Source: Rhodothermales bacterium (lineage in GTDB: Bacteria; Bacteroidota; Rhodothermia; Rhodothermales; JAHQVL01). Taken from it: a DNA stretch of 64,000 nucleotides. Positions 10,018-32,844 of this stretch are shown piece after piece. Numbering within the stretch: position 1 is the first letter of the stretch; each line of letters starts with the position of its first letter. Where the stretch lies: assembly GCA_034439735.1 (NCBI GenBank), contig JAWXAX010000076.1:536-64535 (forward strand), in the 5' to 3' direction. The translations under genes were made by a program, and so were the position numbers. The notes beneath the pieces were generated by a model that was not told the DNA's origin, made no database searches, and was given only the letters and a program-made list of their open reading frames with translations.

Positions 10018-12219
10018 TCACACCAGCGCACTCTCATACCCCGAGTCCCGGACAAAAATGCAGGACGACTCGGTGCGCTCGGGCATCCGGGAGATAAACG
10101 CCAGGTCGACGTGTTCCTGCACGCCGAAGATGGTGATATCGGCCTGGGGGACCTGCTTGAGAAAGGCGTCGAAGACCCCTACGCCTACGATGGGTACGGT
10201 GGACGCCGGCATCCGCCCCAGATCCATCAGCGAACGCAAATAGTGTTCGGCGTTGGCTTTCTCCGAAGCGTCGGCAACGACGGTGATCAGGTTGATCCGC
10301 CCGTTCCAGTTCCGCGCCAGCTGATAGGCCAGCAGGAGCGACAGGTCGAGGTTGGGCAACCGCAGGCCGATCTGCCACTCCGGGCTCTGCTCGCGCATCC
10401 ACACGTTGATCGTCTGCTCCTGACCCAGCGCCGTGTCCGGGCGATCGACATACAGGATCAATCCGAGTTGGTTCAGCGCCGCCTGCTCGGCGATGAACTG
10501 AAGCTTGCCTCGCGTCATCTCCGGCACGATCGGTAGAAACAGGGTATTGGGCCGGAAAAAAGAGCTGGTCGACATCTCCATCGCCGTCTGCAACGTGTAG
10601 CGGAAACCCCTGGACTGGAGCAGCGCGATGCGGGTGAAAATGCCGTCGTTTGCGAACGCCTGCCGATAACTGTGGAGGCCGGCGAGGTGCTCCTTCGTCT
10701 CGTCCGAATAAATGCCCACGATGTGGACTGAACCATTCGGCTTGGTGATCGCCCCCAGAAACCGGTAGCTATACCGGATGGCCGCGGCGGACTGGACGGG
10801 CACGAGCAGGCTCGGCTTCCAGGCGCGGTCCTGACCCGAAGGGAGACTCAACGTCTGCTTCGCCGCCCATTCCGCCACCGTCACGAACATGCCGCTCCGT
10901 ACATCGCTCCAGGGAGTGGTCAGACGCCGCTTCGAGATAAACTGGTATACAAAAAAGATCACGACCGTCGCCACCAGGCTGAAGATCGGGTTGATGAGGT
11001 ACATCGCCGACACCGAGCCGGCCAGCCCGACCAACGGAACCAGCCGTGGGATGACGAACAAAGGCCGAAAACTGGTCAGACGAAGCGACTGTTCGATCAA
11101 CACGACCGCGTTTAAGACGGCATAGGTGATCAGGTTGAACATCGTCATCAGCGGGGCAATTCGGTTTAAGCCATCTCCCGATAGGCCAAACAGGATCGTA
11201 GCCACACCGATCAAGCCGGTCAGATAAAGTGCCGGACGGGGTTCCCCCGTACGCGGCACGTTCGCCAGCTTCTTCCCGAACGGCACCACGTCGTGCGCCG
11301 CCATGGCCTGTAATACCCGCGGCGCTCCGACAAGTGAGTTGAGCGCCGCCGAAAAGGTGGCCGCCAGAATACCGGCCTGGATCGCCCATCCAAACGCCGC
11401 CTTCTCCACCATTACGGCCAGATTGCCCACCAACTCCTCCGGCGTGGCCACGATGGATACCCAGTAGGCCAGGGAAAGGTAGATGATCAGCGAAAGGATG
11501 ATCGCGCCCATCGTGCCGGCGGGTATGCTGATGCGCGGATTCTTAAGCGTTCCCGAGAGATTAACCCCCGTGAGAATGCCGGTAACGGCCGGAAAAAAAA
11601 CGGCGAACACCACCCAGAACGACCCTTGGGAGAAGCTGCCCCACAGTTCGGGCCGCTCGAGCGGGGTTTCCCGGAACGGAGCAAACGTCCCCATAAAGGC
11701 GGCAACAAGCGAGAGGGCGATCACAAACACGATCGTGTAGCGAAGCCTCGCCACGAATCCCATGCTGATATACGCCACCATGAAACACGCCGCATAGGCC
11801 GCAAAAAGCACGATCACGGGTGGGTGAGCCGGGAAAATCGTTAACCACCCCTCGGTAAAGGCAAAAATATAAAAAGCCACCGAGATCGATTGCGCGATGT
11901 ACAGGGGGATGTTGACGCTTCCGCCAACTTCAAGCCCCAGAGCCTGCGAGATGATCGAGAACGACCCGCCGGCTCCCACTCGGATGTTGGTCGCCACCGT
12001 CGATATGGACAGCCCCGTGCAGAACGTGATAGTATTGGCCATCAGGACGATGAGCAACCCGCCCAACAGCCCGGCATTTCCCACCACCCAGCCGACACGC
12101 AGATACATCACGGCGCCCAGGATCGAAAGCAGGGTAGGCAGAAACACGCCCTGGAAGGTGCCAAACTTCTTGCCCTCGTCGGACTCCGCGGAAGGTAGAA
12201 AGGGGACGCTGGGTTGCAT
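10018..12219 (-). CDS. cation:chloride cotransporter (SLC12/CCC)-like APC-superfamily transporter with large cytosolic C-terminal domain
   Basis: 733 aa. N-terminal FGTFQGVFLPTLLSILGAVMYLRVGWVVG closely resembles the first-TM signature of NKCC/KCC proteins. About 12 TM segments, then a soluble domain of roughly 250 aa. Confidence 0.8.
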   Translation of the reverse strand: MQPSVPFLPSAESDEGKKFGTFQGVFLPTLLSILGAVMYLRVGWVVGNAGLLGGLLIVLMANTITFCTGLSISTVATNIRVGAGGSFSIISQALGLEVGGSVNIPLYIAQSISVAFYIFAFTEGWLTIFPAHPPVIVLFAAYAACFMVAYISMGFVARLRYTIVFVIALSLVAAFMGTFAPFRETPLERPELWGSFSQGSFWVVFAVFFPAVTGILTGVNLSGTLKNPRISIPAGTMGAIILSLIIYLSLAYWVSIVATPEELVGNLAVMVEKAAFGWAIQAGILAATFSAALNSLVGAPRVLQAMAAHDVVPFGKKLANVPRTGEPRPALYLTGLIGVATILFGLSGDGLNRIAPLMTMFNLITYAVLNAVVLIEQSLRLTSFRPLFVIPRLVPLVGLAGSVSAMYLINPIFSLVATVVIFFVYQFISKRRLTTPWSDVRSGMFVTVAEWAAKQTLSLPSGQDRAWKPSLLVPVQSAAAIRYSYRFLGAITKPNGSVHIVGIYSDETKEHLAGLHSYRQAFANDGIFTRIALLQSRGFRYTLQTAMEMSTSSFFRPNTLFLPIVPEMTRGKLQFIAEQAALNQLGLILYVDRPDTALGQEQTINVWMREQSPEWQIGLRLPNLDLSLLLAYQLARNWNGRINLITVVADASEKANAEHYLRSLMDLGRMPASTVPIVGVGVFDAFLKQVPQADITIFGVQEHVDLAFISRMPERTESSCIFVRDSGYESALV

Positions 12220-12340
12220 GCAAGCTCGCGTGAAAAGGAATAAAGGCGCACGACGGCGCCTACAACATGCCCGGAGGAGCGCGGTGTTTCCTCACCGCCC
12301 CGGCTCAAGAGAATTTCGCCAGGAACGTTCCAAAACAACG

Positions 12341-12756
12341 TGTGGATTGGTGTACAACCCTGTGGATAAGTGGTGCCAAACCGCCTCGCCGCGAAGACGG
12401 CGACGGACGATGTGTGAACCGGTGGAAAAAAGTGCCGCCGGCCAACAACATGTCCCGACCAATCCACAACCACCTCGCATGTGTACAACCAACGCCCCCC
12501 AAACGCCTGCCCTCATGTGGAAAGCTGTGGATACGTGGAAAGCTTTCACACATCGGCCCGGCGTAGGGGGAAAACCGATACACCACAACGGTCAATACCT
12601 GTGGAGATTCGGGGGATAGAGGTCGTACTTTCCAACATCCCCAGAACGGGAACGTGCACAACCTGTTTGTCCACTTTTCCACATTCCCTACTACTATCCC
12701 TATTACCCTTATATATTAACTTATCTACTAATAGGGATCTCCGGATGTGTGGATAA
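12341..12756. other. DnaA-box cluster with adjacent AT-rich tract: candidate oriC or DnaA-titration/regulatory locus
   Basis: Perfect TGTGGATAA at 12361-12369 and 12748-12756. TGTGGATTG at 12341-12349 and (minus strand) 12460-12468. TGTGGATAC 12526-12534, TGTGGAAAG 12516-12524, TGTGGAGAT 12600-12608. Tandem TTGTCCACT/TTTTCCACA 12667-12683, then CTACTACTA and an AT-rich stretch to 12735. No credible ORF in 12220-12807. Confidence 0.6.
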
Positions 12757-12807
12757 GCAAGACTTTCCCGCCTTCTGGCACTTTCTACCACCTCGCCTCG
12801 CCGAACC

Positions 12808-13675: not shown

Positions 13676-16102
13676 TCAATCGGCGCGCCAGTCCCGGCGG
13701 ACGATGTGTTTCCCATCGCTCACGAGCCAGATGGCCCCTTCCTCCGAGGTCTGGAACAGGAGCATCCCGTGGGCCGGCCAGCGCGCGATCACCTCTTCGT
13801 CCGGTAATCCGTACCGGTTGCGCTTCGCCACGCTTACAATGGCCACCCCGGCTTCCGTGGCCACGTAGGGGACAAACCACGCCGCGCTGCTGGTGGAGGA
13901 ACCATGATGGCCCACTTTGACCACATCGGAGGCTAGCAGATGAGGGTATCGGGCAACGAGGGCCCGCTCCCCCTCTTCCTCTGCGTCGCCGGTGAACAGG
14001 AATCGCGATTCGCCATACTGGAGGCGCAGCACGACCGAGGACTCGTTTACATTCTCATGCGCGCGCAACGCCGGCGCCGGGCCCGCCACGAACACGTGGA
14101 CTGTGGGATCCAGCGCCAGGGTGTCGCCGGCACTCAACACCTGTACCGAAACGCCCAGGCTATCGGCCAGGCGGTCCACCTCCTCCATGAGGTCGCTGGT
14201 ATACGCGGCGCCGCTGACGAGCAGCCGGCCGATCCGCACCCCCCGTAGCAACGTTGGGAGCCCCCCCATGTGGTCGTTGTGCGGATGGGTGATGACCACG
14301 TCATCGATCCGACGGAGGCCATACCGACGGAAATGGGGCAACAACGTCCGCTCGCCCTGATCGATATACGGGTCGGCGGGGCCGGCGTCGACGAGTAGCG
14401 TCCGTCCTCCGGGCATCCGTACCAGCGCGGCGTCGCCCTGGCCGACGTCGAGGTATACAACGGACAGTTCAGGGGCGCGCAGGACGGAGCCGAATTGATG
14501 GCTGGCGAACAACGCGAGGGCCGCGATGGCTGCCCGCCAGCGCCAGCGGGCGGCCATCGCTGTATACAGCGCCACCACACCGGCAACCAGCGCCGCAGCC
14601 GGCAGCGGATGGATGAGCGCCAGTGATACATTGAGCAGCGGCATCCAGCGATCCCCCCAGGCGGCAACGGATAACACAAACAGGGAGGCGGTCTCTGCCA
14701 CGGCGCCAAAGGCGGAAGCCACACCCAAACTCATCGGGCTAGCGAGCAGGGTCAGAATACCACACGCCAGAGCGAGCGATGCGGCGGGAATCGATGGGAT
14801 GTTAAGGAGGATGCCAGCCAGGGCGACCTGCCCGAACTGATGCATCATCACCGGGGCCGTCCCGAGTGTCGCGGCGGCGGACACCAACACCATATCCACC
14901 AACCAGGTCCGCACCTTCCCGGCGCGCCAGGCCTCGGGCAGTGCCTCCTGCCACGCCGGCACAAACAGCACAATCGCGGCGACGGCGGCAAACGAAAGCT
15001 GGAAGCCGGCATCAAACAGGACCCCGGGATTTACGATCAGCAATACCGCCCCCGCCACACTCAGTGCGTTGATCGGGTAACTCGGCCGCTGGAGGACGTG
15101 GCCGCCCAGAAAGGCGCCGGCCATCGTGACGGCCCGCACAACCGAAGGGGCCGCCCCCACCAGCAGGGCGTAGCACGTGAGTACCAGCAAGGTCAGCACA
15201 CTGCGCAACCACTCCATACCCCGCCATCCCAGACCGGCCCGAATGGCAAATGGCCCCAGATGACGGTACAAGAGCATGCCCACCAGCAACACGTGTAATC
15301 CGGATACAGCCAGCAAGTGAGCCAGACCCGTCCGCGCGAGCTGTCCGCGACGCTCCTCGTCCATGTTGTCCCGGCTGCCCGTCAGCAGCGCCTCCAGAAT
15401 GGCGCGAGCTTCCGGATGCACCACATGGAGCCCGAGAGCGGTGAGCATGAAGCGCCTGAGCCGACCCAGAAACCGGGCGACCGGGCGAGGCTGATCGACG
15501 ATGTGGATATCGGACCGGGAGGGCACCGTCCCGACACTCCGCACACCCTGGCGCAGCAGGTACTCCCGATACGAAAAGTCAGCCGGGTTGCGGCGTTCGG
15601 AAGGGACGGCCAGCCGGGCTTTCACTTCGATGCGCTGGCCGGCCCCCAACTCCGGCATAGCCTCTCGTAGCGTAAGGCGGACGCGGCCTCGAACCGGGTC
15701 TTTTTCCGGCCCGACCGCCTCCAACTCCAAGGTAAACCCCGTCCGCACCGAATCCCGCCGCGGTGCACTCACCACGTGGCCGTGAAGCAGCGTCTCGGGG
15801 GAGAGAAGGCCTATCCGGCGGGCTACCTCATCCGACGACGCATAGCCATATCGCGCCATATAACCAGCCGCTCCAAGCCAGACGGCCGCGATCACGACCA
15901 GCGCGGTGGCGAGTAATGGCGCCGGGGAAATGAAGGTCTTGCGGAAGAACGTGAACACGGCCAGGGCCGTCCCGGCGCATGCCACACCGGCGCCAAGGCA
16001 CAGGGGCATCACGCTCGCCGGCACGAGACGACCCACCACAACGCCCGTAGCCAGCCCCAGGGCGAGGTAGAGGGCGGGATATCGATGGAGGCGAGGCGTC
16101 AT
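13676..16102 (-). CDS. comEC: DNA internalization-related competence protein ComEC/Rec2
   Basis: 808 aa. Multi-TM competence domain followed by metallo-beta-lactamase domain (DVGQGDAALV, HPHNDHMGG). Confidence 0.9.
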   Translation of the reverse strand: MTPRLHRYPALYLALGLATGVVVGRLVPASVMPLCLGAGVACAGTALAVFTFFRKTFISPAPLLATALVVIAAVWLGAAGYMARYGYASSDEVARRIGLLSPETLLHGHVVSAPRRDSVRTGFTLELEAVGPEKDPVRGRVRLTLREAMPELGAGQRIEVKARLAVPSERRNPADFSYREYLLRQGVRSVGTVPSRSDIHIVDQPRPVARFLGRLRRFMLTALGLHVVHPEARAILEALLTGSRDNMDEERRGQLARTGLAHLLAVSGLHVLLVGMLLYRHLGPFAIRAGLGWRGMEWLRSVLTLLVLTCYALLVGAAPSVVRAVTMAGAFLGGHVLQRPSYPINALSVAGAVLLIVNPGVLFDAGFQLSFAAVAAIVLFVPAWQEALPEAWRAGKVRTWLVDMVLVSAAATLGTAPVMMHQFGQVALAGILLNIPSIPAASLALACGILTLLASPMSLGVASAFGAVAETASLFVLSVAAWGDRWMPLLNVSLALIHPLPAAALVAGVVALYTAMAARWRWRAAIAALALFASHQFGSVLRAPELSVVYLDVGQGDAALVRMPGGRTLLVDAGPADPYIDQGERTLLPHFRRYGLRRIDDVVITHPHNDHMGGLPTLLRGVRIGRLLVSGAAYTSDLMEEVDRLADSLGVSVQVLSAGDTLALDPTVHVFVAGPAPALRAHENVNESSVVLRLQYGESRFLFTGDAEEEGERALVARYPHLLASDVVKVGHHGSSTSSAAWFVPYVATEAGVAIVSVAKRNRYGLPDEEVIARWPAHGMLLFQTSEEGAIWLVSDGKHIVRRDWRAD

Positions 16103-16356
16103 GGTGGGGATCTCCTTTTCCCTTCAAGACGCTTTTTTGGGGGCCGGCATACCCTCGACCGGCCCGATGGCGCATACCGGAAGCTGGATTTTTTTAGAAC
16201 ATGGGGTGAAATCCCCCCCACTGATGAGAACCATTCGTGTATTGATGAATTGTAACCACCGGTTTAGTTTGCGGCCTCCACCTCCCGGTTGAGTCGTGCA
16301 TCATGCACGGTGCAGGTAAGCATCCATCACAATTTTCAACGATGATGTGACGCGGT

Positions 16357-16836
16357 ATGAGCAGCCGACGCATTGTGAGAGAGCGGGTCATGCAGGCGCT
16401 GTATGCCTACAAGCTGGCCGGCGGGGACCCTCAACACTGCATCAACACAGTGCTGAAGCCCGATTTGGAGGAGAGCGAAGCTAATCTGAAGTTTGCTACG
16501 GCCCTTTTTCTCCGTTCGCTCGATTTCTTTGATGTGGCCGACGAAATCATCGCCAATCATACGCAGAACTGGGAGGTCTCGCGTATTGCATTGATCGACC
16601 GCCTCCTCCTGGTCATGGCGATCTGCGAGTTCTTATCCTTCGAGGACATCCCGCCCAAGGTATCCATCAACGAAGCGATCGAGGTGGCCAAGAAGTACAG
16701 TACGTCGCGAAGCGGTAAGTTCATCAATGGCATCCTGGATGCCGTGCTTCTCGATCTGCAGAAAGAGGGAAAGCTGAAAAAATCAGGGCGTGGGCTGGTC
16801 GGCATGGATACGATTCAAAGCCGAATCGTCACGTAA
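16357..16836 (+). CDS. nusB: transcription antitermination factor NusB
   Basis: 159 aa. RERVMQALYAY..., IDRLLLVMAICEF, NEAIEVAKKY, KFINGILD are typical of NusB. Confidence 0.9.
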   Translation: MSSRRIVRERVMQALYAYKLAGGDPQHCINTVLKPDLEESEANLKFATALFLRSLDFFDVADEIIANHTQNWEVSRIALIDRLLLVMAICEFLSFEDIPPKVSINEAIEVAKKYSTSRSGKFINGILDAVLLDLQKEGKLKKSGRGLVGMDTIQSRIVT

Positions 16837-16839
16837 AAA

Positions 16840-16870
16840 GGCGCCGGCGTGTTTTCTGGCGCCATCTTTA
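16840..16870 (+). terminator. stem-loop after nusB (intrinsic terminator candidate)
   Basis: GGCGCCGG (16840-16847) / CTGGCGCC (16856-16863), loop CGTGTTTT, followed by ATCTTTA. Starts 4 nt after the TAA stop. Confidence 0.5.
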
Positions 16871-16891
16871 AGCCATCTTGTGATCGGATAA

Positions 16892-17554
16892 ATGGGCCTC
16901 ATTGCGATCGGGGATATACATGGGTGTGTAAAAACGCTCGATGCCCTTCTGGAACAACTCTCCCCCCGAGAAGACGATCACCTCGTGTTTATCGGGGATT
17001 ATATCGATCGCGGGCCCGATTCGAAGGGAGTGATCGATCGGTTGATCACGCTCGCCGAAACCGTTCCCTGTACGTTTTTGCGAGGCAATCACGAAGTATT
17101 TCTCCTCAATCACTTTGACGGCAACCGGCACGACGACGAGGTGTGGTACCTCAACGGCGGCCGGCAAACCATGAAAAGCTACGCGGATGGATCCGGTCGC
17201 GAGTCTCTTCCCGAATCCCATCTGCAGTTCATCCGCGATACAAAGCTTTATCTGGACACTGGGGAGTTCTTTTTTGTACACGCCGGCCTCCAACCCCATA
17301 TAAGCGTCGCCGAAAACCTCCGCCACCCGTCTGAGAAGACCTTCCTGTGGGATCGCTCGCACTTCTCGGCGCGCTTCCTGGTATGGGAGAAAACGGTCGT
17401 CTGCGGGCACACACCCCACCCTGAGCCGATCAACCACCGCCAGTTGATCAGCATCGATACCGGTTGCGTGTATTACATGTATCCGGGCATGGGGCGCCTC
17501 TGTGGTGTCCGCTTGCCGGAGCGGGAGTTCGTGATGGTAAACTACATAGGCTGA
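16892..17554 (+). CDS. metallophosphoesterase, PPP-family Ser/Thr phosphatase (ApaH/PrpE-like)
   Basis: 220 aa. GDIHGC, GDYIDRGPDS and GNHE motifs. Confidence 0.85.
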   Translation: MGLIAIGDIHGCVKTLDALLEQLSPREDDHLVFIGDYIDRGPDSKGVIDRLITLAETVPCTFLRGNHEVFLLNHFDGNRHDDEVWYLNGGRQTMKSYADGSGRESLPESHLQFIRDTKLYLDTGEFFFVHAGLQPHISVAENLRHPSEKTFLWDRSHFSARFLVWEKTVVCGHTPHPEPINHRQLISIDTGCVYYMYPGMGRLCGVRLPEREFVMVNYIG

Positions 17555-17646
17555 CGCCGGCGTAACGGAACATTCGCGCGACGCTGTTATTCCTTGCGCT
17601 TGCTTTCTGCGCCCCATCCGCCATCACTCACGCAATCTGAACGTTC

Positions 17647-18741
17647 ATGTCTCTCCGTTGCGGCATCGTCGGTCTTCCGAATGTCGGTAAATCCACGCTT
17701 TTTAATGCGCTGAGCAATGCTGGCGCCGAGTCCGCCAACTACCCGTTCTGCACCATCGAACCCAATGTCGGGGTGGTCGCCGTGCCCGATCCCCGCCTCA
17801 CCCGTCTGGCGGAGACGGCCAGATCGGCCAAGCTGGTGCCGGCAACCATCGAGTTTGTGGACATCGCCGGCCTGGTCGCCGGCGCCTCAAAGGGAGAAGG
17901 CCTGGGCAACCAGTTCCTGGCGCATATCCGCGAAGTAGACGCGATCATACACGTCGTTCGCTGCTTCGACGACGAAAATGTCACCCACGTCGAAGGATCG
18001 GTGGACCCCGCGCGCGACGTGGAGATCATCCACACGGAGCTCCTGCTGAAGGACATGGAGACGGCAGAGAAACGCATCGACCGGACGCGCAAACTGCTCA
18101 AGACGGGCGACAAAAAGGTGCAGACGGAGCTGGCATTTTACGAACGGGTGATGGCCCACCTCGAGACGCCGCTGCTGGCCCGCGCGATGGAGGTAAAAAA
18201 AGAGGAGTTGGAGTGGATGAAGTCGCTGTTCCTCCTCACTCAGAAGCCCGTACTGTTCGCCGCCAACGTCAGGGAATCGGATCTGCCGGACGGCAATGCG
18301 TATGTCGAGACACTGCGCCAGATCGCGGCAGCGGAAAACGCCGCCGTCATCGTCGTCTGCGCCGAACTCGAAGCCCAACTGGGCGAGATCGAGCCCTCCG
18401 AACGCGCGGCGTTCCTGAATGATATGGGGCTCGATGAAGCCGGCCTGGACCGACTGGTACACACGGCCTACTCACTCCTCGGCCTCATCACCTACTTCAC
18501 CGCCGGCCCGAAGGAGGCCCGCGCCTGGACCATTCCGATTGGCACCAAAGCCCCACAGGCCGCCGGCGTGATCCATAGCGATTTCGAACGCGGCTTCATC
18601 CGAGCCGAGACCATCAAATACTCGGATTATATCACCCTCGGCACGGAAGCCGCCGCCCGAGATGCCGGCCTCATGCGCTCCGAAGGCAAGGAATACGTGG
18701 TGCTAGACGGCGATGTGATGCTGTTTCGGTTTAATGTCTGA
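17647..18741 (+). CDS. ychF: redox-regulated ribosome-binding ATPase YchF
   Basis: 364 aa. GIVGLPNVGKSTLFNAL P-loop, DIAGLVAGASKGEGLGN, C-terminal TGS-like GDVMLFRFNV. Confidence 0.95.
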   Translation: MSLRCGIVGLPNVGKSTLFNALSNAGAESANYPFCTIEPNVGVVAVPDPRLTRLAETARSAKLVPATIEFVDIAGLVAGASKGEGLGNQFLAHIREVDAIIHVVRCFDDENVTHVEGSVDPARDVEIIHTELLLKDMETAEKRIDRTRKLLKTGDKKVQTELAFYERVMAHLETPLLARAMEVKKEELEWMKSLFLLTQKPVLFAANVRESDLPDGNAYVETLRQIAAAENAAVIVVCAELEAQLGEIEPSERAAFLNDMGLDEAGLDRLVHTAYSLLGLITYFTAGPKEARAWTIPIGTKAPQAAGVIHSDFERGFIRAETIKYSDYITLGTEAAARDAGLMRSEGKEYVVLDGDVMLFRFNV

Positions 18742-18745
18742 TCGA

Positions 18746-18783
18746 TGGTCGATGGTTAGGCATCGATCATTAACTATCGACCA
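18746..18783. terminator. 13-bp inverted repeat between convergent ychF and OMP genes
   Basis: TGGTCGATGGTTA (18746-18758) / TAACTATCGACCA (18771-18783), one mismatch, 12-nt loop. Confidence 0.45.
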
Positions 18784-18793
18784 TTAACATCAG

Positions 18794-19480
18794 CTAGAAC
18801 AACCGTCCAAACGTAATGCTGATCGATGGGGTGCCGAAGAATCGGGCCGGCGTGGTGGCTTCATCGATCTCCAGGAGTTGGATCGGGTCGAAAAAGTAAT
18901 TGAAGCTATAGCCCACCCGCATACCCTGGGCGACACGGGTGCTCTCGCCGAAATGAGCCCCCAACCCAACCATCCCGCCAATGCCGAAACGTAATTCTCC
19001 TTTCAGCAGCGACCCAAACCCTTCGTAGCGCCGCTCGCCGGAGTCGTAGGACCCATTGTCGTTGTCGTCGTCGAAATACGGGTAGACCCAGCCGAGTGTG
19101 GGGCCAAACGTGAACTGGGTGTAGGGCCTGAAATTGTCCTCGATATGCTCTTTCCACAGCCGGCGCTGGATACCCAGACGCACGGGGATACGCAGGAAAT
19201 AGTTCGCTTTGTCCGGAATGAAGTTCTGGCCGATGCCGATGAACTTGACCTCACGCTCACTTTTTTCGGAGCCGATGTTGAGGTCCACCGCGAGGGATGT
19301 GCGTGTGCCAATGGCCCCGTTGACGTACGCCCCCAGCCCAAACCCGCTGTTGGTGATGACCACCTCCAGGCCGGCGCCCGTGCCATATGCGGTGGCCAGG
19401 GAGTCTGCCTCGCCGGCCTCCTGTGCGTAGGCGCCTGTTGCCGCGGGTAGAATGAGGAGGATGAGGAAGAGACGATTCAT
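18794..19480 (-). CDS. outer-membrane beta-barrel protein (hypothetical)
   Basis: ATG at 19480 gives MNRLFLILLILPAATGAYAQ signal peptide. Alternating beta-strand pattern, C-terminal ...ITFGRLF with terminal Phe. The upstream extension of track ORF 18794..19852 looks non-coding. Confidence 0.7.
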   Translation of the reverse strand: MNRLFLILLILPAATGAYAQEAGEADSLATAYGTGAGLEVVITNSGFGLGAYVNGAIGTRTSLAVDLNIGSEKSEREVKFIGIGQNFIPDKANYFLRIPVRLGIQRRLWKEHIEDNFRPYTQFTFGPTLGWVYPYFDDDNDNGSYDSGERRYEGFGSLLKGELRFGIGGMVGLGAHFGESTRVAQGMRVGYSFNYFFDPIQLLEIDEATTPARFFGTPSISITFGRLF

Positions 19481-19585
19481 GGCGGAGGCGTCGCTGAACA
19501 GTCTGGTGAGAACTTGAGCCGGAAAGCTTTGTTCTGTAGCCATGCCGGCCGAGGCGCCCCTCCCGCACCATCCCAGTTTGCCTAC

Positions 19586-20875
19586 GTGGATTACCGCCTG
19601 CTCATCGCGCGCCGCTACCTGTTCAGTCCCCGACGCGTCACGCTGATCTCGATCATCACGGGTATTTCGGTGTTCGGTGTCGCGCTGGGCGTGGCGTCGC
19701 TCATCGTCGTTTTGTCCGTGATGAATGGCTTCTCGGAGGTGGTGCGCGGGCTGCTGGTCGGGCTTGATCCCCATGTCCGCATCGTCGCTGTGGACAACCG
19801 CGAGCCGGTGCCATCGGATTCGTTGCTCGCTATCGCGGCGGCCCTCCCTCATGTGATTTCCGCTGCGCCCTATGTGCAGGGCAAGGCGCTCCTGGTCATG
19901 GAGGGGATGAGCGACATGAACCGGGTGGTGATCGTGCGCGGCGTAGAAACGGCGTCGGCGGGCAAGGTGAGCGATGTGGTGGAGAAGACGACTATGGGCG
20001 CATTCGATCTGGATCGGCGCGCCGGCCGGGCCGGCGTGGTCGTTGGCCGGAATCTGGGGCAGAGCCTGGGGCTGTTTCCGCCCGCGACGGCCGAGGGTCT
20101 CCCGTCTACCGGAGAGGAACGGGGCAGCAGCGTCTATCTGCTGACGGCGCCGGGTATCGAGCGCATGATGACCCAGCTGCTTGGCGCCATGCCCTCCAGC
20201 CCGTACGAGGTCCGCGGCTTATATGAAATGGAGCCGGTATACGACGAGACGCACGTGTTTATCGACCTCGCCGAAGCACAACGCCTGTACCGGATGAACG
20301 ACCGCGTCTCGGGCATCGAACTCCGCCTGGACGACCTCAACCGCGCCGCCGAGGTCAAGGAGCTCCTGACCGCTCGCCTGGATACCGCGCGCGTGGAGAT
20401 CTTTACGTGGTACGATCTCAAGAAGTCCCTCTACGAGGTGATGGAACTCGAGAAATGGGGTGCCTCGCTCGTTCTCTTCCTCATCGTAGTCGTCGCCGCG
20501 TTTAATATCGTCGGGTCGCTGACGATGGTGGTGATCGAGAAACGCCACGACATTGGGGTCCTGAAAGCAATGGGGGTGTCCAGGCGCAATGTGCTGACGA
20601 TCTTCCTGACGGAAGGCGCCCTGATCGGCGCGATCGGCACCGGGGTCGGCCTCTTTTTTGGCCTCGGCCTGTCGCTTGCGCAACACCATCTGCACCTGGT
20701 GCCGATGGCCGAGGCGGAGTCCTTCATCCTGGACGCGTACCCGATCGCCATCCGCGGCTTCGATGTCGGACTCATCGTGGTGGTCGCGCTCGGGCTCTGT
20801 ATCGCTGCCGCCATCTATCCCTCGCTCCGCGCCGCCGCGATCGAGCCGGCGGACGCCGTCCGAATCGGAGATTAA
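19586..20875 (+). CDS. lipoprotein-releasing system permease (LolC/LolE, FtsX family)
   Basis: GTG at 19586 gives VDYRLLIARRYLFSPRR, typical of LolC/E N-termini (track start 19514 is possible). MacB-like periplasmic domain and C-terminal FtsX TM bundle. Confidence 0.85.
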   Translation: MDYRLLIARRYLFSPRRVTLISIITGISVFGVALGVASLIVVLSVMNGFSEVVRGLLVGLDPHVRIVAVDNREPVPSDSLLAIAAALPHVISAAPYVQGKALLVMEGMSDMNRVVIVRGVETASAGKVSDVVEKTTMGAFDLDRRAGRAGVVVGRNLGQSLGLFPPATAEGLPSTGEERGSSVYLLTAPGIERMMTQLLGAMPSSPYEVRGLYEMEPVYDETHVFIDLAEAQRLYRMNDRVSGIELRLDDLNRAAEVKELLTARLDTARVEIFTWYDLKKSLYEVMELEKWGASLVLFLIVVVAAFNIVGSLTMVVIEKRHDIGVLKAMGVSRRNVLTIFLTEGALIGAIGTGVGLFFGLGLSLAQHHLHLVPMAEAESFILDAYPIAIRGFDVGLIVVVALGLCIAAAIYPSLRAAAIEPADAVRIGD

Positions 20876-20969
20876 TAACGAACGTTCGGTAAAGCCGAAA
20901 CTTTTCCACAGGGTGCTTATTTTAAGCCCTTCTGTCCGATACAATCACTCAGTGCTGAAAGGCCATATC

Positions 20970-21206
20970 ATGGCACGGAAAGACCAGATCACCGGTAAGG
21001 GCCCTATGTCGGGGAATCACGTTTCGCATGCGAATAACAAGGTTCGCCGGCGTTTCAACGTGAATCTGCAGAAGAAGCGGTTCTATATTCCGGAAGAGAA
21101 GCGGTGGATCACGTTGCGGGTTTCCGCGCAGACGATCAAGACGATCAACAAGAACGGCATCGCGGCTGTTCTGAAAGAAGCGCGCGCCCAGGGCGTTCGC
21201 GTCTGA
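20970..21206 (+). CDS. rpmB: 50S ribosomal protein L28
   Basis: ATG at 20970: MARKDQITGKGPMSGNHVSHANNKVRRRFNVNLQKKRF.... The longer track ORF 20658..21206 is the same frame with a spurious 5' extension. Confidence 0.95.
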   Translation: MARKDQITGKGPMSGNHVSHANNKVRRRFNVNLQKKRFYIPEEKRWITLRVSAQTIKTINKNGIAAVLKEARAQGVRV

Positions 21207-21256
21207 TCGCGGACCCTCCACGCCCCCATCCACTCTGTTAGCTCGGCTATACGGCA

Positions 21257-21427
21257 ATGGCAAAAGGAAAAGAAACTCGGATCAAGGTGATTCTGGAGTG
21301 CACCGAAGCTCCCGGCACCTCCCGCTACTCCACGATCAAGAACCGGCGTAATACGCCGGCCCGCATGGAGTTGAAGAAGTACAACCCGGTGCTTCGCAAG
21401 ATGACGCTCCATAAGGAGATCAAGTAA
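21257..21427 (+). CDS. rpmG: 50S ribosomal protein L33
   Basis: Hand translation: [56 protein letters not shown] (56 aa). Below the length cut-off of the ORF track. Confidence 0.9.
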
Positions 21428-21551
21428 GCGAAGTCAGGTATGCCTGGCCGGCGGTCGCCGGCTCGGCACTCGGTAGAATAATCAGGTGGCATCCGGCGGG
21501 CGTATCGCTTAAGTCGGATCTTGCGTTATACCAGCATCACGAGGTGAAGCT

Positions 21552-21731
21552 ATGGCTAAGAAAGTTAGTAAGAACCAGCGTACGGACCGCGGTAAGAACA
21601 AGGTCACCATCAAGATGGCCAAGATTATCACCGCGGACAAGAAGGAGAACGGGCAGTACCGCTTCGTTCATAAGATGGTCAATGCGGACGACTTGCAGAG
21701 CGAGTTGGCCGCGGCGAAGGCGAACATCTAG
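21552..21731 (+). CDS. small basic protein, DUF4295-type (conserved after rpmB-rpmG in Bacteroidota)
   Basis: Hand translation: [59 protein letters not shown] (59 aa). Position after L28/L33. Confidence 0.7.
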
Positions 21732-21748
21732 TTCGCGAGACCGCCGTT

Positions 21749-21822
<74 letters not shown>

Positions 21823-21847
21823 CATCGTGTTGGATCAGTGTTCTGTT

Positions 21848-21924
21848 GCGCCCGTAGCTCAACTGGATAGAGCAGCGGACTTCTAATCCGCAGGTTGCAG
21901 GTTCGAGCCCTGCCGGGCGCGCCA
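21848..21924 (+). tRNA. tRNA-Arg (anticodon TCT), CCA encoded
   Basis: Acceptor GCGCCCG/CGGGCGC, D-arm TAGCTCAACTGGATAGAGC, anticodon loop CTTCTAA, T-arm GCAGGTTCGAGCCCTGC. Confidence 0.9.
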
Positions 21925-21963
21925 TGTTCGCCCGGCGGCTCTGTCTGAAACGTGCTTTAAGCC

Positions 21964-22037
21964 GGTGACGTGGCCGAGTGGCTAGGCAAAGGTCTGCAAA
22001 ACCTTCTACGGCGGTTCGAATCCGCCCGTCACCTCCA
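21964..22037 (+). tRNA. tRNA-Cys (anticodon GCA), CCA encoded
   Basis: Acceptor GGTGACG/CGTCACC, anticodon stem AAGGT/ACCTT with loop CTGCAAA, T-arm GGCGGTTCGAATCCGCC. Confidence 0.85.
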
Positions 22038-22116
22038 GGGGTTCCCGTTTAAGGGCGCCCCTTTTTTATTTGCCGGGAGGGTATGCGGCGGCCTCGCGTT
22101 GCGTCTTGAAGGATAT

Positions 22117-23010
22117 ATGCCCTCAACGCAACCGGCCCACCTCATGCGGATCTTTTTACCTCCCTACCTCAGCGCGCGAACTATCTACAGTGTGATCGGC
22201 CAGGTACTGAGCGAAACCAATGCACTGCGGGCGGACCGCTTCAGCTTCGATCTTTCGCCGCTTATTGCCGTGGAGCCCGCCGGCGTAGCGGCCTTCGCCG
22301 CCCTCGTCGAATGGATACGCCTCCGCGAATCGATCTGTGTCCTCGCACCAGGCACCTGCGCTCCCAACGAACCCGTCGCACTCACCCTACGCCGTATCGG
22401 CTTCTTCCCTCGGGTCCTCCACCACCCCGTGGCGTTCTCCGCCCCTCCCGACACCCACTGGATGCCACTTGCGATCGTTCCTCCGGAAGCCTCGGGTCGT
22501 ATGTTGGCGGAGGACGTGCTGCCGTGGATCGCCGCCCGGTCCGGTGTCAGCCGGTTTGCGGTGGAGTGGAACCTGTCATCCCTGGGAGCTCTCTTCACTC
22601 CGGTCACAGAACCCACCCGGCAGCCCTTCTTCGTGGTCGGACGCATTGATCCGCAACGCGCCAGGCTTGAACTGGCCGTCGCCGCATGGCCGGCGCATGC
22701 AGAGGTCGCCCGCGCGGATCGCCACGAAGGAAAATCCGCTTTCGATCAGCTGCTGGCCGGCCTGTCAGACCAGGTCGTGGGGTGGTTTGCACTCCATGAA
22801 GGATGGCAGATCGCCACGGCCGTGCCCGATGGGATCCACCGGGTCCGCTCGACGTACCCGGCGCCGGTGGCCTACCCCGGTCGGTTGTTTGATCTCGTGA
22901 TCGATCTGACGGCTTTCTCCATACAACCGATGCTTAACGAGCCCAGCGAGCCAGTCACAGTGCCGTGGACGTACGCTCTGTCGGTCCTGGAATCGGGAGG
23001 GCCGGCCTGA
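22117..23010 (+). CDS. hypothetical protein (297 aa)
   Basis: ATG at 22117 (MPSTQPAHLMRIF...). The track ORF start at 21970 would overlap tRNA-Cys. No motif recognised. Confidence 0.55.
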   Translation: MPSTQPAHLMRIFLPPYLSARTIYSVIGQVLSETNALRADRFSFDLSPLIAVEPAGVAAFAALVEWIRLRESICVLAPGTCAPNEPVALTLRRIGFFPRVLHHPVAFSAPPDTHWMPLAIVPPEASGRMLAEDVLPWIAARSGVSRFAVEWNLSSLGALFTPVTEPTRQPFFVVGRIDPQRARLELAVAAWPAHAEVARADRHEGKSAFDQLLAGLSDQVVGWFALHEGWQIATAVPDGIHRVRSTYPAPVAYPGRLFDLVIDLTAFSIQPMLNEPSEPVTVPWTYALSVLESGGPA

Positions 23011-23192
23011 GAGGGGCGGGAGGCATCGATTTGTTTGTCGAATAGCCGCGAAAGCGGCTCGTTGGTAAGAGAAGAATATAAAAAGCGAAACGGCTTGGTT
23101 TCCCGGGCGTACCCTGCTAACGTATTCCATCTGGCAGGTTGGCCCACGCCGCTGTTATTCTGCTTTCGCACGCTAGGTTAAAAGGAAATTCC

Positions 23193-23555
23193 ATGACAGC
23201 CCTGGGTTTTGTGAGCATCACGCTGATCGTGCTCGTCTTTTTTGCTGCGCTTTATGGCGTGGTGGAACTGATCGGGCGCGCCGCGGAACGCCGTTACCGC
23301 ACGGCGGCCCAGGAGGCCCTGGATCGATACTGGAAGCAAAACAAAGACGAACTGCGACTCGATGTCCCCTGTCCGAACTGCAACCTTCGGTTCGACGCGC
23401 CGGACCAGACCTATTTCGAGTGCCCGCACTGTGCCTTCTTGCTCACCACCGAATGGATCAAAAACTACCACCACCGAAAGATGAAGGAGGAGTGGGAGAA
23501 TAGCTTCTCCGGGCGCTTCTATCGCATTGCGCCCGAGGCGCCGGCCAAACGATGA
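23193..23555 (+). CDS. hypothetical membrane-anchored zinc-ribbon protein
   Basis: ATG at 23193: one N-terminal TM (ALGFVSITLIVLVFFAALYGVV), then CPNC...x15...CPHC. Confidence 0.55.
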   Translation: MTALGFVSITLIVLVFFAALYGVVELIGRAAERRYRTAAQEALDRYWKQNKDELRLDVPCPNCNLRFDAPDQTYFECPHCAFLLTTEWIKNYHHRKMKEEWENSFSGRFYRIAPEAPAKR

Positions 23556-23558
23556 ACG

Positions 23559-26225
23559 TTACCAGGAGACCGACAGGTCGAACGAAGGCTGTAAACCCAG
23601 GTCGTATACGTCTACATTGACGAACGAAAAGCCAAGCGCCGGCCGGTCCGGATTGTACACCTGCACCGGGTCCCTGTACCAGGTATTCGCCCGGCCGTAG
23701 AGGTTGTAAACCGATACTCGCGCATCGACGCGGATACCCCCGAATGGCCGGCTGAACCGTACCCCCCCGTCGAGCCGGTGGTAGTCGGGCAAATAGTCCC
23801 GCTCGATGGGATCGTCGTACGCCAGAATGTTGGGGGTGCCCGTGGCGTAGTACCAGGTGGCGTACGCCGTGAACGTGCGAAGCAAGGGGATGGCGATATG
23901 CGATGAAAACTGGTGCCTCCGATCCCACTCCGCCGGAAACCGCTCTCCCTGATTGACACGCCCGTTCTGCAACTCTACCCGAGACAGGGTATAACTGGAC
24001 GTCCAGCTGATCGTACCGATCAGCTGACGGTACATCGCCTCGATACCTGTCGCATACGCCCTGTTATCCGAAAACCAGGGCACAAAACGGTTGTCGTTGG
24101 CGGTGGTGATGCCCGCAGGCGCGTTGATTTCGTGACGCCGGATGTTCGCGTGATTTCGCGAGTAGGCCTCGACTTGCAGCGAGGCGGAACGGTGCGGTTT
24201 GATGTATACGCCGGCCGTGAGGTTGTTGACCTCGCTGGGCTTCGATGCCCCCGTGGTCATGATCCACACGCTCGCGCTGTTCGTGTTCTGAAGATAGAGG
24301 TGGTGTAAAAACTGGTAATTCTTGCTAAACCCGAGCTTAAACGAAATCGGTTTGCCCGGTAACACCGTCACTTGCGCGCGAGGCGACAGTTTGAAGGTGT
24401 TCCCCTGCGTGAAATAGTGACTCCGGAGGCCGAGGTGAAGATCGACATATTCCAGATCCGTTGTTTCATACTGCACAAAAGCATCACCCTGGATGGCAAA
24501 ATAATCTTCCTGAAACTCCGGCCGGCTCGCCGAACGCTCATGGTAAAACAGGGCGTAATAGTTCGCGGCCATCCCCATCGTCCATTGACCCGAATACGCC
24601 GGCGTCAGATTGAGAAACTCGGCCCATTGTAGATCGAACAACTCATTTTCGTACTCGAATGGGAAGATGAAATTTCTCGGCTGCCCCGTCTGATTGTTGA
24701 TGCGCGTGAATACAAAGTCATCTTTCCCGAAGAAGCTGCGATAGTGGCTGCCGGCAAGTAGGGACTGCAGATATGCGCGCCGGCCGATCGGCCGATAAAA
24801 TTGAAGGCTCAAGGCCTCATTCCCCCACCGGTTGCGTGTCTCGACATCGCGAGTGACCGCCCCAAGGACATTGGTCACGGAGTCCCGCTCGGCGTAGACA
24901 CGCTCTGCATTGAGCAGGGTGTGATTCCCGCCGAGGTACAACGTCGCCATGCGCCGGCGTCCATCCGGGGCCTCCGTGTAGATCTTGGCGTGGAGGTCAT
25001 AGAAGCGAGCCGCGCCGGCGCGGGGGGTTACAAGGCGGTTTTCAACGCCGGCGTATTCTGGCGGCAGGGCGCTTTTCGACCGACTTACGTCCAACCCCAT
25101 CAGGACGAGGTTCTCGTTATTCAACCAGTCTATGGCGTCGATGTACGAATGCCGGCCCGAAACCAGCCAACTCGATCGGCCGACCCCGATAGGGCCTTCA
25201 AGCGTCCCGCGGACGGCGGTGCTGCTTGCCCCAAGTGCTCCGCGCAGCCGGTTCAACGAACCCGTGCGGGTGATAAACGACATAGTACCCCCTGGTGGGG
25301 CGAAGTAACTGGCCGGAGCGATGTCGTAATAAAACCCGACCGTCTGCAGCGCATCGCTATTAAAGACGTCGAAGAAGCCGAAGAAGTGGTTCTGGTTGTA
25401 GATCGAGGCGCCATCCAGCAGCACTTGAAACCCATCGGCCTTGCTGCCGCGCACGTTTAGCCCGTCGGTCATGGCCGGTGAGACGGCTACCATGGGCAAA
25501 GGCTGCAGGCCGCGCAGTACGCTGCTCTCGCTAAGCGAAGAAAACCGGTCTGTGTGCAACAGGTAGAGCCAGGTCGTATCCAGATCCGTCTGCAATATCG
25601 AGCTACTCACGAGCACTTCCTGTCCCCGAATGGGCTCCGGCACAAGTCGGATCGAGAGTTCTTCCGGGTAGGCGCCGGCCACCATGCGCCATACCGTGGT
25701 CTGGTATCCGATGTAGGAGATGTGCAGGTCGACGGTCGGCTGTGCGGCAAATGCGTTGTCGATCCGCAAGGTAAATACGCCGGCATCATTCGTCGTAACG
25801 CCGCGAATGCGGCCGTCCTGTACCCAGGAAACGCTGGCGAAGGGCAGCCGACCCCCGCTCTCCGCGTCGATCACCTGGCCCGAGACGACCCCGGGCGCCG
25901 GGCTGGCGTCCGCCGCCGGCTCGAACAGCAGAATCTGACGATGGGCGGCGTCGAAGCGCATGTCGATGCGCTGCGTGGCCAGGGCGGCTTCGAGCGACGG
26001 CACGAGGTCGATGGCCTGACAATTCAGGGTGATGAGCTTACTGACGATCAGCGCGTCGCGAAACAGGAATCGGTATCCCCCACGGAGTTGGATGTCCGCG
26101 ATGACCTCGTTGAGCGGGGCGTTGGTGTAGGAGAACGTCTGGGCCGATGCGGTGCCGGTGGTGCCCACGAGCAACAGCAGGGCATAAAGAAAAGAAACGC
26201 AGCGAAGTTCAGGGACGCGTTTCAA
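23559..26225 (-). CDS. TonB-dependent receptor with N-terminal STN/FecR-signalling extension and CarboxypepD_reg-like domain
   Basis: Proposed TTG start at 26225 gives signal peptide (M)KRVPELRCVSFLYALLLLVGTTGTASA. STN-like NAPLNEVIADIQ...LEAAL, then GQVIDAESGGRLPFASV, plug and barrel ending ...FDLSVSW. The track start 26390 would overlap fecR by 180 nt. Confidence 0.85.
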   Translation of the reverse strand: MKRVPELRCVSFLYALLLLVGTTGTASAQTFSYTNAPLNEVIADIQLRGGYRFLFRDALIVSKLITLNCQAIDLVPSLEAALATQRIDMRFDAAHRQILLFEPAADASPAPGVVSGQVIDAESGGRLPFASVSWVQDGRIRGVTTNDAGVFTLRIDNAFAAQPTVDLHISYIGYQTTVWRMVAGAYPEELSIRLVPEPIRGQEVLVSSSILQTDLDTTWLYLLHTDRFSSLSESSVLRGLQPLPMVAVSPAMTDGLNVRGSKADGFQVLLDGASIYNQNHFFGFFDVFNSDALQTVGFYYDIAPASYFAPPGGTMSFITRTGSLNRLRGALGASSTAVRGTLEGPIGVGRSSWLVSGRHSYIDAIDWLNNENLVLMGLDVSRSKSALPPEYAGVENRLVTPRAGAARFYDLHAKIYTEAPDGRRRMATLYLGGNHTLLNAERVYAERDSVTNVLGAVTRDVETRNRWGNEALSLQFYRPIGRRAYLQSLLAGSHYRSFFGKDDFVFTRINNQTGQPRNFIFPFEYENELFDLQWAEFLNLTPAYSGQWTMGMAANYYALFYHERSASRPEFQEDYFAIQGDAFVQYETTDLEYVDLHLGLRSHYFTQGNTFKLSPRAQVTVLPGKPISFKLGFSKNYQFLHHLYLQNTNSASVWIMTTGASKPSEVNNLTAGVYIKPHRSASLQVEAYSRNHANIRRHEINAPAGITTANDNRFVPWFSDNRAYATGIEAMYRQLIGTISWTSSYTLSRVELQNGRVNQGERFPAEWDRRHQFSSHIAIPLLRTFTAYATWYYATGTPNILAYDDPIERDYLPDYHRLDGGVRFSRPFGGIRVDARVSVYNLYGRANTWYRDPVQVYNPDRPALGFSFVNVDVYDLGLQPSFDLSVSW

Positions 26226-27198: not shown

Positions 27199-27295
27199 GG
27201 CACGCACCGAGGGATAAAGCGTGAAAGTAGGGGCGGGGCGGGGCGCCCTCCTTCGCCCACCCGGTCTGGCGGCGAAGGAGGGCGTAGGAACAGGA

Positions 27296-28300: not shown

Positions 28301-28407
28301 GATAGGATGTCGGTTGAAGTTTATCAAGAGATAGGCGATAGCATGTCATACAGACAACAACGGTACACCTGATTTCGGCATCACCCCCAAGTGGCGTGTC
28401 TACCGGC

Positions 28408-28941: not shown

Positions 28942-29249
28942 ATGAACGGCCAGATAAATGAGTAGCGAGGCGAGGGTAAGCGGGGTCAGCACGGTGGTCT
29001 TCAGGCGTATGGAAGAGATGTGGGAGAAGGTACGGCTGGAGGCGACGCCTCGGCCGGCGCAATCACTGTGCCGCTTAAGGTCTCGCCCCGGGAGTATGAG
29101 GCGCGACCTCATCTCATCCATCATGCGAAGAAAAGGGCTCCTCCTTCATCAACAAGCGGCCCGCCGGCCAGGCGATAGGCTCGTGGTGAAACCGAGAAGG
29201 ACGTTCATAGTTCTAAAATGAGGCTCCCACACACCCACTGTACCCCGAA

Positions 29250-29600: not shown

Positions 29601-29708
29601 CCTCTCCCGTCTTGCCGCCCCGAGTGGCTAGCAGGCGGTGAACGACCCCATCTATTCTGGAAATCGCCCGGTATTCGCGGGTGGTCTCCGTGGTCATGCA
29701 GCGCCCCT

Positions 29709-32069: not shown

Positions 32070-32162
32070 GGCGTCTGATGAACACGCTCGGAAGCCCCGG
32101 GTGCTCGGCCGCCAACGCTGGGGACCTGGTTTTGCATCAATAAACAAACCTACCTAGAAGCT

Positions 32163-32822: not shown

Positions 32823-32844
32823 GGCGGTCCGGACGCATGGCGTG

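Follow-up and report, generated by a model that had tools for sequence, protein, structure and literature searches.

A probable chromosomal replication origin uncoupled from dnaA in an uncultured Rhodothermales bacterium

In most bacteria the chromosomal origin of replication (oriC) is found beside dnaA. The order of DnaA box, DnaA-trios and AT-rich stretch was reportedly set out as the basal unwinding system by Richardson et al. in 2016. Described here is a 588-bp intergenic gap that displays this order 36 kb away from dnaA. It is located in a 64-kb stretch of DNA from an uncultured Rhodothermales bacterium (the whole analysed stretch is termed the window), and the predictions are made from sequence alone. 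The gap, at positions 12220-12807, is very probably a chromosomal oriC that is uncoupled from dnaA.

The basal unwinding system has been predicted in 85% of 2070 origins in DoriC (Pelliciari et al., 2021; PMC8287927). The published spacer between the upstream box and the trios peaks at 10-13 nt and has a maximum of 16 nt; the minimum number of trios is three, with the form 3′-NAN-5′ and the consensus 3′-GAT-5′ (PMC8287927). Modules are listed in the supplement as the lower strand, 3′ to 5′. Thus the Bacillus subtilis entry, AATAGGTGT TTAGGTGT CCGG GATGATAATGAAGATGAT, reads 5′-TTATCCACA AATCCACA GGCC CTACTATTACTTCTACTA on the top strand (PMC8287927). The distal boxes of B. subtilis incC help to assemble or deliver DnaA (PMC6669920). 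The incC module, which consists of boxes 6/7, trios and an AT-rich 27-mer (reportedly described by Richardson et al. in 2016 and 2019, and by Pelliciari et al., 2021), is situated between dnaA and dnaN and cooperates with a second cluster of boxes that is upstream of dnaA.

In the genome record of Salinibacter ruber DSM 13855, dnaA presumably occupies position 1. The predicted origin of this species (DoriC ORI10020025) is instead ~13.0 kb into the record; it reads TTATCCACA TTTCCACA cga CTAATAATA, and its listed trios are only CTA ATA ATA (PMC8287927 supplement). The published table assigns S. ruber to Rhodothermaceae, and the species is of the same broad lineage as the window. The DoriC origin of Rhodothermus marinus is at the genome start and has weak trios, CAC AAA AAA CAT, with a score of 5 (PMC8287927 supplement).

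That an origin may lie apart from dnaA is recognised in the Ori-Finder and DoriC literature, and Escherichia coli is a classical case (PMC8287927). The E. coli oriC, located between mnmG (gidA) and mioC, is tens of kb from dnaA and has a box cluster beside an AT-rich element; features of its own are 13-mer repeats, IHF and Fis sites, control through GATC and SeqA, and a weak unwinding-module score (PMC8287927). The datA and DARS1/2 loci of E. coli are DnaA-box clusters that also lie away from dnaA. Loci of the datA/DARS type are documented mainly in enterobacteria and are not known to have trios or an unwinding element or to coincide with a strand-composition switch.

The gap is delimited by two divergent genes, and the coordinates and flanking genes given in a preliminary description of the window are borne out:

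10018-12219, minus strand: gene of a CCC transporter, a prokaryotic cation-chloride cotransporter (Pfam CCC_C_1st/2nd_pro and AA_permease)
12220-12807, 588 bp, no strand assigned: proposed oriC intergenic gap, recognised by box density, flanking genes and conservation in related loci L001, L002 and L003
12808-13650, plus strand: usp, gene of a tandem universal stress protein (Usp), the right flank of the gap

Within the right half of the gap lies the predicted unwinding module, with the following parts:

12667-12683, plus strand: tandem same-orientation boxes TTGTCCACT and TTTCCACA (9 + 8 nt), putative platform boxes of the module
12684-12687, plus strand: 4-nt spacer TTCC, at the position of the GC-cluster (GGCC in B. 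subtilis)
12688-12705, minus strand: DnaA-trios; the plus strand reads CTA CTA CTA tcc CTA TTA, the minus strand 3′-GAT GAT GAT agg GAT AAT-5′
12697-12737, no strand assigned: predicted AT-rich DNA unwinding element, where AT content is highest and duplex stability lowest in the window
12748-12756, plus strand: inward-facing perfect box TGTGGATAA, 64 bp past the tandem pair, with the usp start codon 51 bp further on

The preliminary description had claimed two tandem boxes at 12667-12683, followed after 4 nt by CTA CTA CTA and then by the most AT-rich stretch of the window, in the order of the basal unwinding system. The boxes do share one orientation, but they are not two full 9-mers; the 17 nt, TTGTCCACTTTTCCACA, are a 9-mer and an 8-mer sharing one T. 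The remainder of the claim holds. TTCC is followed by CTACTACTA (12688-12696), and the highest AT content of the window is at 12674-12740 with scanning windows of 30, 40 and 60. The same segment is the least stable duplex as calculated from nearest-neighbour energies over 30, 50 and 80 bp, ~4.7-5 standard deviations from the mean, and it lies directly beside the boxes. The geometry and strand are those of the B. subtilis module (PMC8287927 supplement); the strand of the trios, which had been left open, is the correct one relative to the boxes, as judged by the published B. subtilis entry. The minus strand of the trios would be the strand that is bound as single-stranded DNA.

On its plus strand, the window at 12667-12705 reads 5′-TTGTCCACT TTTCCACA TTCC CTACTACTA TCC CTATTA. 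As in B. subtilis, a 9-nt box is followed directly by an 8-nt box of the same orientation and then by a 4-nt spacer, with 12 nt from the upstream box to the trios; 3′-GAT-5′ trios are opposite the TTATCCACA strand, an AT-rich stretch comes after them, and there are further upstream boxes of variable orientation. The nearer box, TTTTCCACA, has one mismatch and is 4 nt from the trios, and the farther one, TTGTCCACT, has two mismatches and is 12 nt away. Accordingly, a box with at most two mismatches is found within 16 bp of the first trio, the tandem pair has a typical spacer as measured from the upstream box, and at least three consecutive trios lie on the right strand downstream. A scan of both strands of the 64 kb, modelled on the published rules (box with ≤2 mismatches, spacer ≤16 nt, ≥3 CTA/TTA trios), gives a single match, at this site.

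There are also differences from B. subtilis. The module is 36 kb away from dnaA and not between dnaA and dnaN, its upstream tandem box is the weaker of the two (which is not the case in the relatives of the window), and a conserved inward-facing box is present at the far side of the unwinding element. B. subtilis is not known to have such a box. The resemblance to S. ruber resides in a near-identical tandem pair, TTATCCACA TTTCCACA, a short spacer and CTA-type trios, as well as in a predicted origin away from the genome start; the S. ruber spacer is 3 nt and not 4 nt.

Two other sequence properties of the unwinding element were observed. A perfect 10-nt inverted repeat, ATCCCTATTA / TAATAGGGAT, is present at 12696-12705 and 12729-12738. 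The dyad is modest, with a single-stranded fold z of -2.45, and shows no clear conservation in L001 or further relatives. Mirror-image trios on the minus strand (CTA TTA GTA, 13 nt from the 12748 box) were considered as well; they are not conserved in L001, L092 and L088, and a two-sided trio module is therefore unsupported.

Upstream of the module, boxes extend over most of the gap (A1 denotes the alignment with L001 and L002/L003):

12341-12369, plus strand: distal box pair from the box scan, TGTGGATTG (2 mismatches) at 12341 and perfect TGTGGATAA at 12361-12369
within 12341-12369, plus strand: box-like variant GTGTACAACC between the members of the distal pair, from the box scan
12421-12429, plus strand: weak box GGTGGAAAA with 2 mismatches, from the box scan; CGGTGGAAAAAA is invariant in A1
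12460-12468, minus strand: box CAATCCACA, which is TGTGGATTG on the minus strand, in an orientation opposite to its neighbours; CAATCCACAACC is invariant in A1
12480-12488, plus strand: variant box TGTGTACAA with 2 mismatches, of the GTGYAYAACC repeat family, with more copies at 12350 and 12654
12516-12542, plus strand: tight array TGTGGAAAG, c, TGTGGATAC, GTGGAAAG from the box scan, conserved in A1
12600-12608, plus strand: box TGTGGAGAT with 2 mismatches, inside the conserved block ACGGTCAATACCTGTGGAnATTCGGGGGATA

The box counts of the preliminary description are all reproduced. These are five copies of TGTGGAT/ATCCACA in the gap (12341, 12361, 12462 on the minus strand, 12526 and 12748), two of them within perfect boxes (TGTGGATAA at 12361 and 12748), and the variants TGTGGAA at 12516 and 12677 (minus strand), TGTGGAG at 12600 and GTCCAC within 12667-12675. 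The 64-kb window has 13 copies of the heptamer, and the gap holds five of the 13. Dinucleotide-preserving shuffles of the window lead one to expect 6.1 copies per 64 kb, or ~0.04 per 414 bp; the Poisson probability of five or more in 414 bp is ~1e-9 per position and ~1e-7 when corrected for the scan of the window. The perfect 9-mer (TGTGGATAA/TTATCCACA) is found only twice in the window, in both cases inside the gap. Twelve 9-mers with at most two mismatches from TTATCCACA are present in 12301-12800, compared with a window mean of 1.1 per 500 bp. This is well above background; the runner-up, with 6 per 500 bp, is at 50.2-50.7 kb, upstream of dnaA.

Repeats other than the canonical boxes are also found in the gap. 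The 10-mer GTGTACAACC or GTGCACAACC is present three times (12350-12359, 12481-12490 and 12654-12663), each time near a DnaA box, and copies of the form GTGCATAAC(C/T) are found in R. litoris (see below) and L090. The 10-mer probably represents a low-affinity variant of the DnaA box, of the TGTGCATAA type, although a second binding factor may recognise it. Boxes of sequence TGTGCATAA, related to the variant box at 12480-12488, are present in L088 and L090. A second repeat, CAACATGYCCSGA, is found at 12263, 12446 and 12633, with a spacing of ~185 bp. Near-consensus boxes (≤1 mismatch) are in excess over the entire window, 18 observed versus 5.7 expected from shuffles, and there is a loose intragenic scatter of them at 15.5-34 kb (15502-34038), to the right of the proposed origin.

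Orthologous loci were recovered by way of the CCC, Usp and DnaA proteins, and the comparison set consists of L002/L003, L001, L092, L090 and L088, or six sequences counting the window. L088 is the complete genome of an isolate, Rhodocaloribacter litoris (CP076718.1; 4,502,320 bp), and L090 is a 5.41-Mb circular contig of ERZ25070591, on which the orthologous gap is near 1,583,500. Usp identity to the window ranges from 87% down to 57% (L092 75%, L090 59%, L088 57%). All five other sequences, which represent four other Rhodothermales organisms, retain the module in their orthologous gap, upstream of usp. Whether relatives keep the boxes had been raised in the preliminary description, and they do so in L002/L003, L001, L092, L088 and L090. 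In L002/L003 and L001 the gap length is unchanged, and the boxes and the trio/AT-rich block are nearly invariant, set in intervening DNA that has diverged (A1); the distal-pair block, TGTGGATTGGTGTACAACCCTGTGGATAAG, is likewise nearly invariant. Boxes conserved amid diverged spacers are the pattern of a footprint, as read from the alignment.

All six sequences have TCCACnTnTCCACA, a 4-nt spacer, CTA-type trios, a stretch of 64-71% AT and an inward-facing box 55-64 bp after the tandem pair. The trios of R. litoris are four perfect CTA. When the loci were scanned for the module, L001, L002, L088 and L092 gave a match only in the orthologous gap; there was no match in L090, which has degenerate trios, nor in the dnaA loci L094 and L095. 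Conservation at the orthologous position, of boxes more than of spacers, is thus seen in alignments A1 and A3 and in the locus scans. In L090 the gap is 4-9 kb from rpmH-rnpA-yidC-mnmE-mnmG, the classical origin-linked cluster, and in this it resembles the E. coli oriC. Two wider searches added little. A ComEC search of genome contigs returned one close relative, from the same metagenome-assembled genome as L003, while the other 79 loci are distant and have no box cluster near comEC. With the Usp alignment as query, metagenome contigs yielded two distant homologues (42-45% identity, 41-43% GC), neither of which has anything origin-like beside it.

The gap separates divergent genes, and the boxes might only regulate transcription of usp, of the CCC gene or of both from a DnaA-controlled divergent promoter. 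DnaA is a transcription factor in many bacteria, and the perfect box at 12748 is 51 bp before the usp start codon. However, twelve boxes over 420 bp, together with trios and an unwinding element, far exceed known DnaA operators, and the module is unchanged in R. litoris and L090, where the CCC gene is missing. The position of the right-hand box is also informative. In the six sequences its distance from usp varies from 36 to 190 bp, whereas its distance from the tandem pair is steady at 55-64 bp; the box is thus tied to the unwinding module and not to a usp promoter. Of all the readings considered here, a promoter that only regulates the flanking genes is the least likely. A sigma-70 promoter scan of the 588-bp gap found none, and one terminator-like hairpin is present, at chance level. 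The gap matches no family in Rfam, also at relaxed thresholds.

Strand composition bears on the reading of the gap as an oriC. GC skew changes from ~-0.18 at the left end of the window to ~+0.1 at the right end. A change from negative to positive skew is an origin-type switch. The cumulative GC skew has its minimum at 19.0 kb, in a shallow valley that extends from 12 to 34 kb, and the turns of AT skew and keto/amino disparity coincide with it. Per-gene skew was fitted as a replication term plus a transcription-strand term with a movable change point, the transcription term being included because third codon positions of coding strands in this genome are rich in C. The fit is best with the change point placed between comEC and nusB, at 16.2 kb, where the residual sum of squares for GC skew is 121; the values are 145 at 12.5 kb, 234 upstream of dnaA and 280 without a change point. 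The third-position measure GC3 and AT skew rank the change points as GC skew does (for GC3, 999 upstream of dnaA versus 1157 without a change point). The fits thus place the origin within 12.5-19 kb and not beside dnaA. The comEC-nusB gap (16103-16356) is nearest to the best change point and was considered as an alternative origin, but it has no DnaA boxes and was set aside.

The relatives were analysed as 20-kb pieces, and their skew results refer to loci and not to whole replicons. Of 18 gene boundaries tried as GC3 change point in the 20.8-kb locus of R. litoris, the one that fits best is exactly the gap between pgi and usp, which is the orthologous gap of this species. The residual sum of squares is 87.6 at the gap, 144 at the next-best boundary and 267.5 without a change point. 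The replication coefficient is +0.122, compared with +0.125 in the window. The proposed origin thus coincides with an origin-type composition switch in the R. litoris locus and lies within 4-6 kb of one in the window.

The preliminary description had left a choice between an oriC uncoupled from dnaA and a datA/DARS-like locus, at which the boxes titrate DnaA or alter its nucleotide state, with initiation taking place at another site. The density of the cluster and its distance of 36 kb from dnaA fit such a locus, and the skew minimum is not exactly at the cluster. The window-wide excess of near-consensus boxes noted above also means that DnaA-binding sites are not confined to one spot. Yet a locus of this type would be a cluster with no trios or unwinding element and away from a composition switch, and the gap does not answer to that description. 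It holds a complete module of boxes, spacer, trios and AT-rich element that is unique in the window, and across genera no part of the gap is better conserved than this module. No comparable cluster or unwinding element is found elsewhere in the 64 kb, which span the switch, and the R. litoris GC3 change point falls in the orthologous gap. Thus, of the two options, the oriC uncoupled from dnaA is strongly supported, and a datA/DARS-like locus appears very unlikely in view of the complete, conserved module.

A further possibility is that the true origin is in the usual place, in the 1-kb non-coding region upstream of dnaA, and that the cluster at 12.5 kb is auxiliary or a relic. The relevant features are:

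47407-48573, minus strand: dnaN, beside dnaA
48716-50266, minus strand: dnaA (Bac_DnaA, Bac_DnaA_C and DnaA_N domains), pointing toward the gap
50335-50683, no strand assigned: weaker DnaA-box group within the non-coding region 50267-51277

The region upstream of dnaA has the second-highest box density in the window. The corresponding regions of relatives have ~5 boxes, of which two are perfect in R. litoris, and DoriC places the R. marinus origin at the genome start (PMC8287927 supplement). On the other hand, the region in the window has no perfect box and no box-plus-trio module, and its AT content and duplex instability are not outstanding. A change point there is nearly as poor as none, by the GC-skew and GC3 values given above, and dnaA, dnaN and the genes to their left are composed like lagging-strand genes on the right-hand side of an origin. 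The boxes share one orientation in the window and in relatives and stand beside a promoter-like conserved block, an arrangement that fits dnaA autoregulation. Autoregulation of dnaA via upstream boxes is established in E. coli and B. subtilis, and by analogy the boxes upstream of dnaA in the window probably serve this role and are not part of the unwinding module. An origin beside dnaA is very unlikely in this organism.

Several features of the region upstream of dnaA may be recorded. A block of ~150 nt at ~50950-51100 (minus strand, in the direction of dnaA) shows strong conservation in L095 and partial conservation in R. litoris. It holds the promoter-like CTTGACGTT...TTGGTTACCATAAAATCCC, ~700 nt before the dnaA start, and may represent the promoter of dnaA or a small RNA that has escaped annotation. 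Rfam has no family for this block, and nothing meaningful was found upstream of dnaA at relaxed thresholds. Short tandem repeats are AATCGTGTGACAA (2.7 copies, 50904-50938) and GTGCCGGTGACAGG (3.1 copies, 51181-51223). A 23-nt near-palindrome, CTTGTTGACAAGTTATCAACAAG, at 50511-50533 is formed by two weak DnaA-like boxes, and its core, TGTTGATAAC, is kept in relatives.

The distance of 36 kb between dnaA and the gap, given in the preliminary description, agrees with the location of dnaA in the window. It is the same in the L001 genome, with dnaA at 159,635-161,191 and the gap at 197,131-197,720 of the contig. In R. litoris, dnaA is at 2,323,613-2,325,145 and the module at ~2,394,150, a separation of 69 kb, and dnaA points toward the origin. 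The separation in L001 and R. litoris indicates that the uncoupling is old within the group.

Some observations weigh against the reading of the gap as an origin. Both the best change point (16.2 kb) and the skew minimum (19 kb) are displaced rightward from the cluster, by 4-6 kb; usp and above all comEC have left-type composition and are the only genes on the wrong side. The 20-kb loci of L090 and L001 display no clear composition switch of their own, and the conservation is drawn from five or six lineages of a single order. Uninterrupted perfect trios number only three, which is the published minimum, whereas B. subtilis has at least six. Finally, the ribosomal-protein genes, yicC, gmk, coaBC, dnaB and dnaN-dnaA are head-on to a fork that moves rightward from the gap. 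An offset of 4-6 kb does not exceed the scatter usual in such curves, and most of it is explained by comEC alone.

The head-on orientation had already been described for rplM-rpsI, rpsB-tsf-pyrH-frr and dnaA-dnaN, and this is confirmed, rplM, rpsI, rpsB, tsf, pyrH and frr being located at 39.7-44.0 kb, all on the minus strand. In R. litoris, usp is followed by an ECF sigma factor gene and then by rplM-rpsI-rpsB-tsf-pyrH-frr-yicC-gmk-coaBC, which are co-directional, and comEC-nusB follow dnaN. The segment from usp to dnaN (window 13651-47406) is inverted relative to R. litoris (L088, L094), and L090 shares the window order usp-comEC-nusB. Inversion of this segment between lineages thus explains most of the head-on orientation; dnaA-dnaN are head-on in both arrangements, that of the window and L090 and that of R. 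litoris. Judged from these gene orders, the head-on genes do not argue against an origin at the gap.

Other genes in the vicinity may be mentioned. The replicative helicase gene dnaB (32845-34428, minus strand) is 20 kb from the proposed origin, and dnaA, dnaN and dnaB are all within 38 kb of it and all head-on. A tRNA cluster, Pro(TGG)-Arg(TCT)-Cys(GCA), is found at 21749-22037. An open reading frame at 21970-23010 overlaps tRNA-Cys and has no Pfam match; its start, or the open reading frame itself, is therefore doubtful.

With respect to the genes that flank the gap, the Usp protein is 100% identical to the annotated protein P0121 of a Rhodothermales metagenome-assembled genome, and an exact-sequence look-up of the CCC protein gave no record. 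The CCC gene is absent from the orthologous gap of R. litoris (L088) and L090, which is a pgi-usp gap in both; the transporter gene is thus an insertion beside the origin in the lineage of the window. Past the closest relatives its context is unrelated (L004, L005), and most homologues are from Chloroflexota. By its distribution it looks like a horizontally acquired gene inserted directly beside the putative origin. With unrelated contexts outside the closest relatives, the CCC gene was rejected as a synteny anchor.

DnaA binding, unwinding and firing at the gap are inferred from sequence, and the following course of events is proposed. DnaA, encoded 36 kb away, would first fill the strong boxes (12361, 12526, 12675, 12748), after which the weaker ones across 12341-12608 would be occupied. 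Starting at the tandem boxes (12667-12683), ATP-DnaA would form a filament along the trios of the minus strand, which occupy 12688-12696 and continue imperfectly up to 12705. By stretching the trio strand, the filament would open the AT-rich element at 12697-12737; DnaB would then be loaded and forks would depart bidirectionally. The distal boxes probably act, by way of looping or oligomerisation, to deliver or stabilise DnaA, a role shown for their counterparts in B. subtilis. The inward-facing box at 12748 would close off the melted region, and it may help to load a second helicase or couple usp transcription to initiation.

Perhaps the two box groups define a closed module in Rhodothermales, with convergent boxes around the melted region, and a related proposal is that the pgi-usp origin is the true one throughout the order; taken together these are speculative and rather unlikely. 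In such a module, the inward-facing box, 55-64 bp from the tandem pair, would mark where the bubble ends, or nucleate loading of DnaA or helicase on the opposite strand. It would thus represent a simple built-in means of loading two helicases. Were the pgi-usp origin order-wide, dnaA would have been kept head-on at a distance of 36-70 kb, and the dnaA-adjacent DoriC site of R. marinus would not be the true origin. Given the conserved pgi-usp module in other Rhodothermales, it may be worth revisiting where the R. marinus origin has been placed.

Origins uncoupled from dnaA and origins with this type of unwinding module are both well documented, and no new concept is put forward. A search of the available literature returned no paper on Rhodothermales origins and no experimentally studied origin of the lineage. 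The present analysis assigns a well-delimited, probable origin in Rhodothermales, a group related to Bacteroidota, in which a box/trio/AT-rich module of the B. subtilis type appears to be kept nearly nucleotide for nucleotide. If the assignment is correct, dnaA would be a poor marker of the origin in Rhodothermales, and the pgi-usp gap together with TCCACnTnTCCACA-N4-CTACTA a better one. The better marker would serve genome rotation, skew-based analyses and estimates of growth rate from metagenome coverage.

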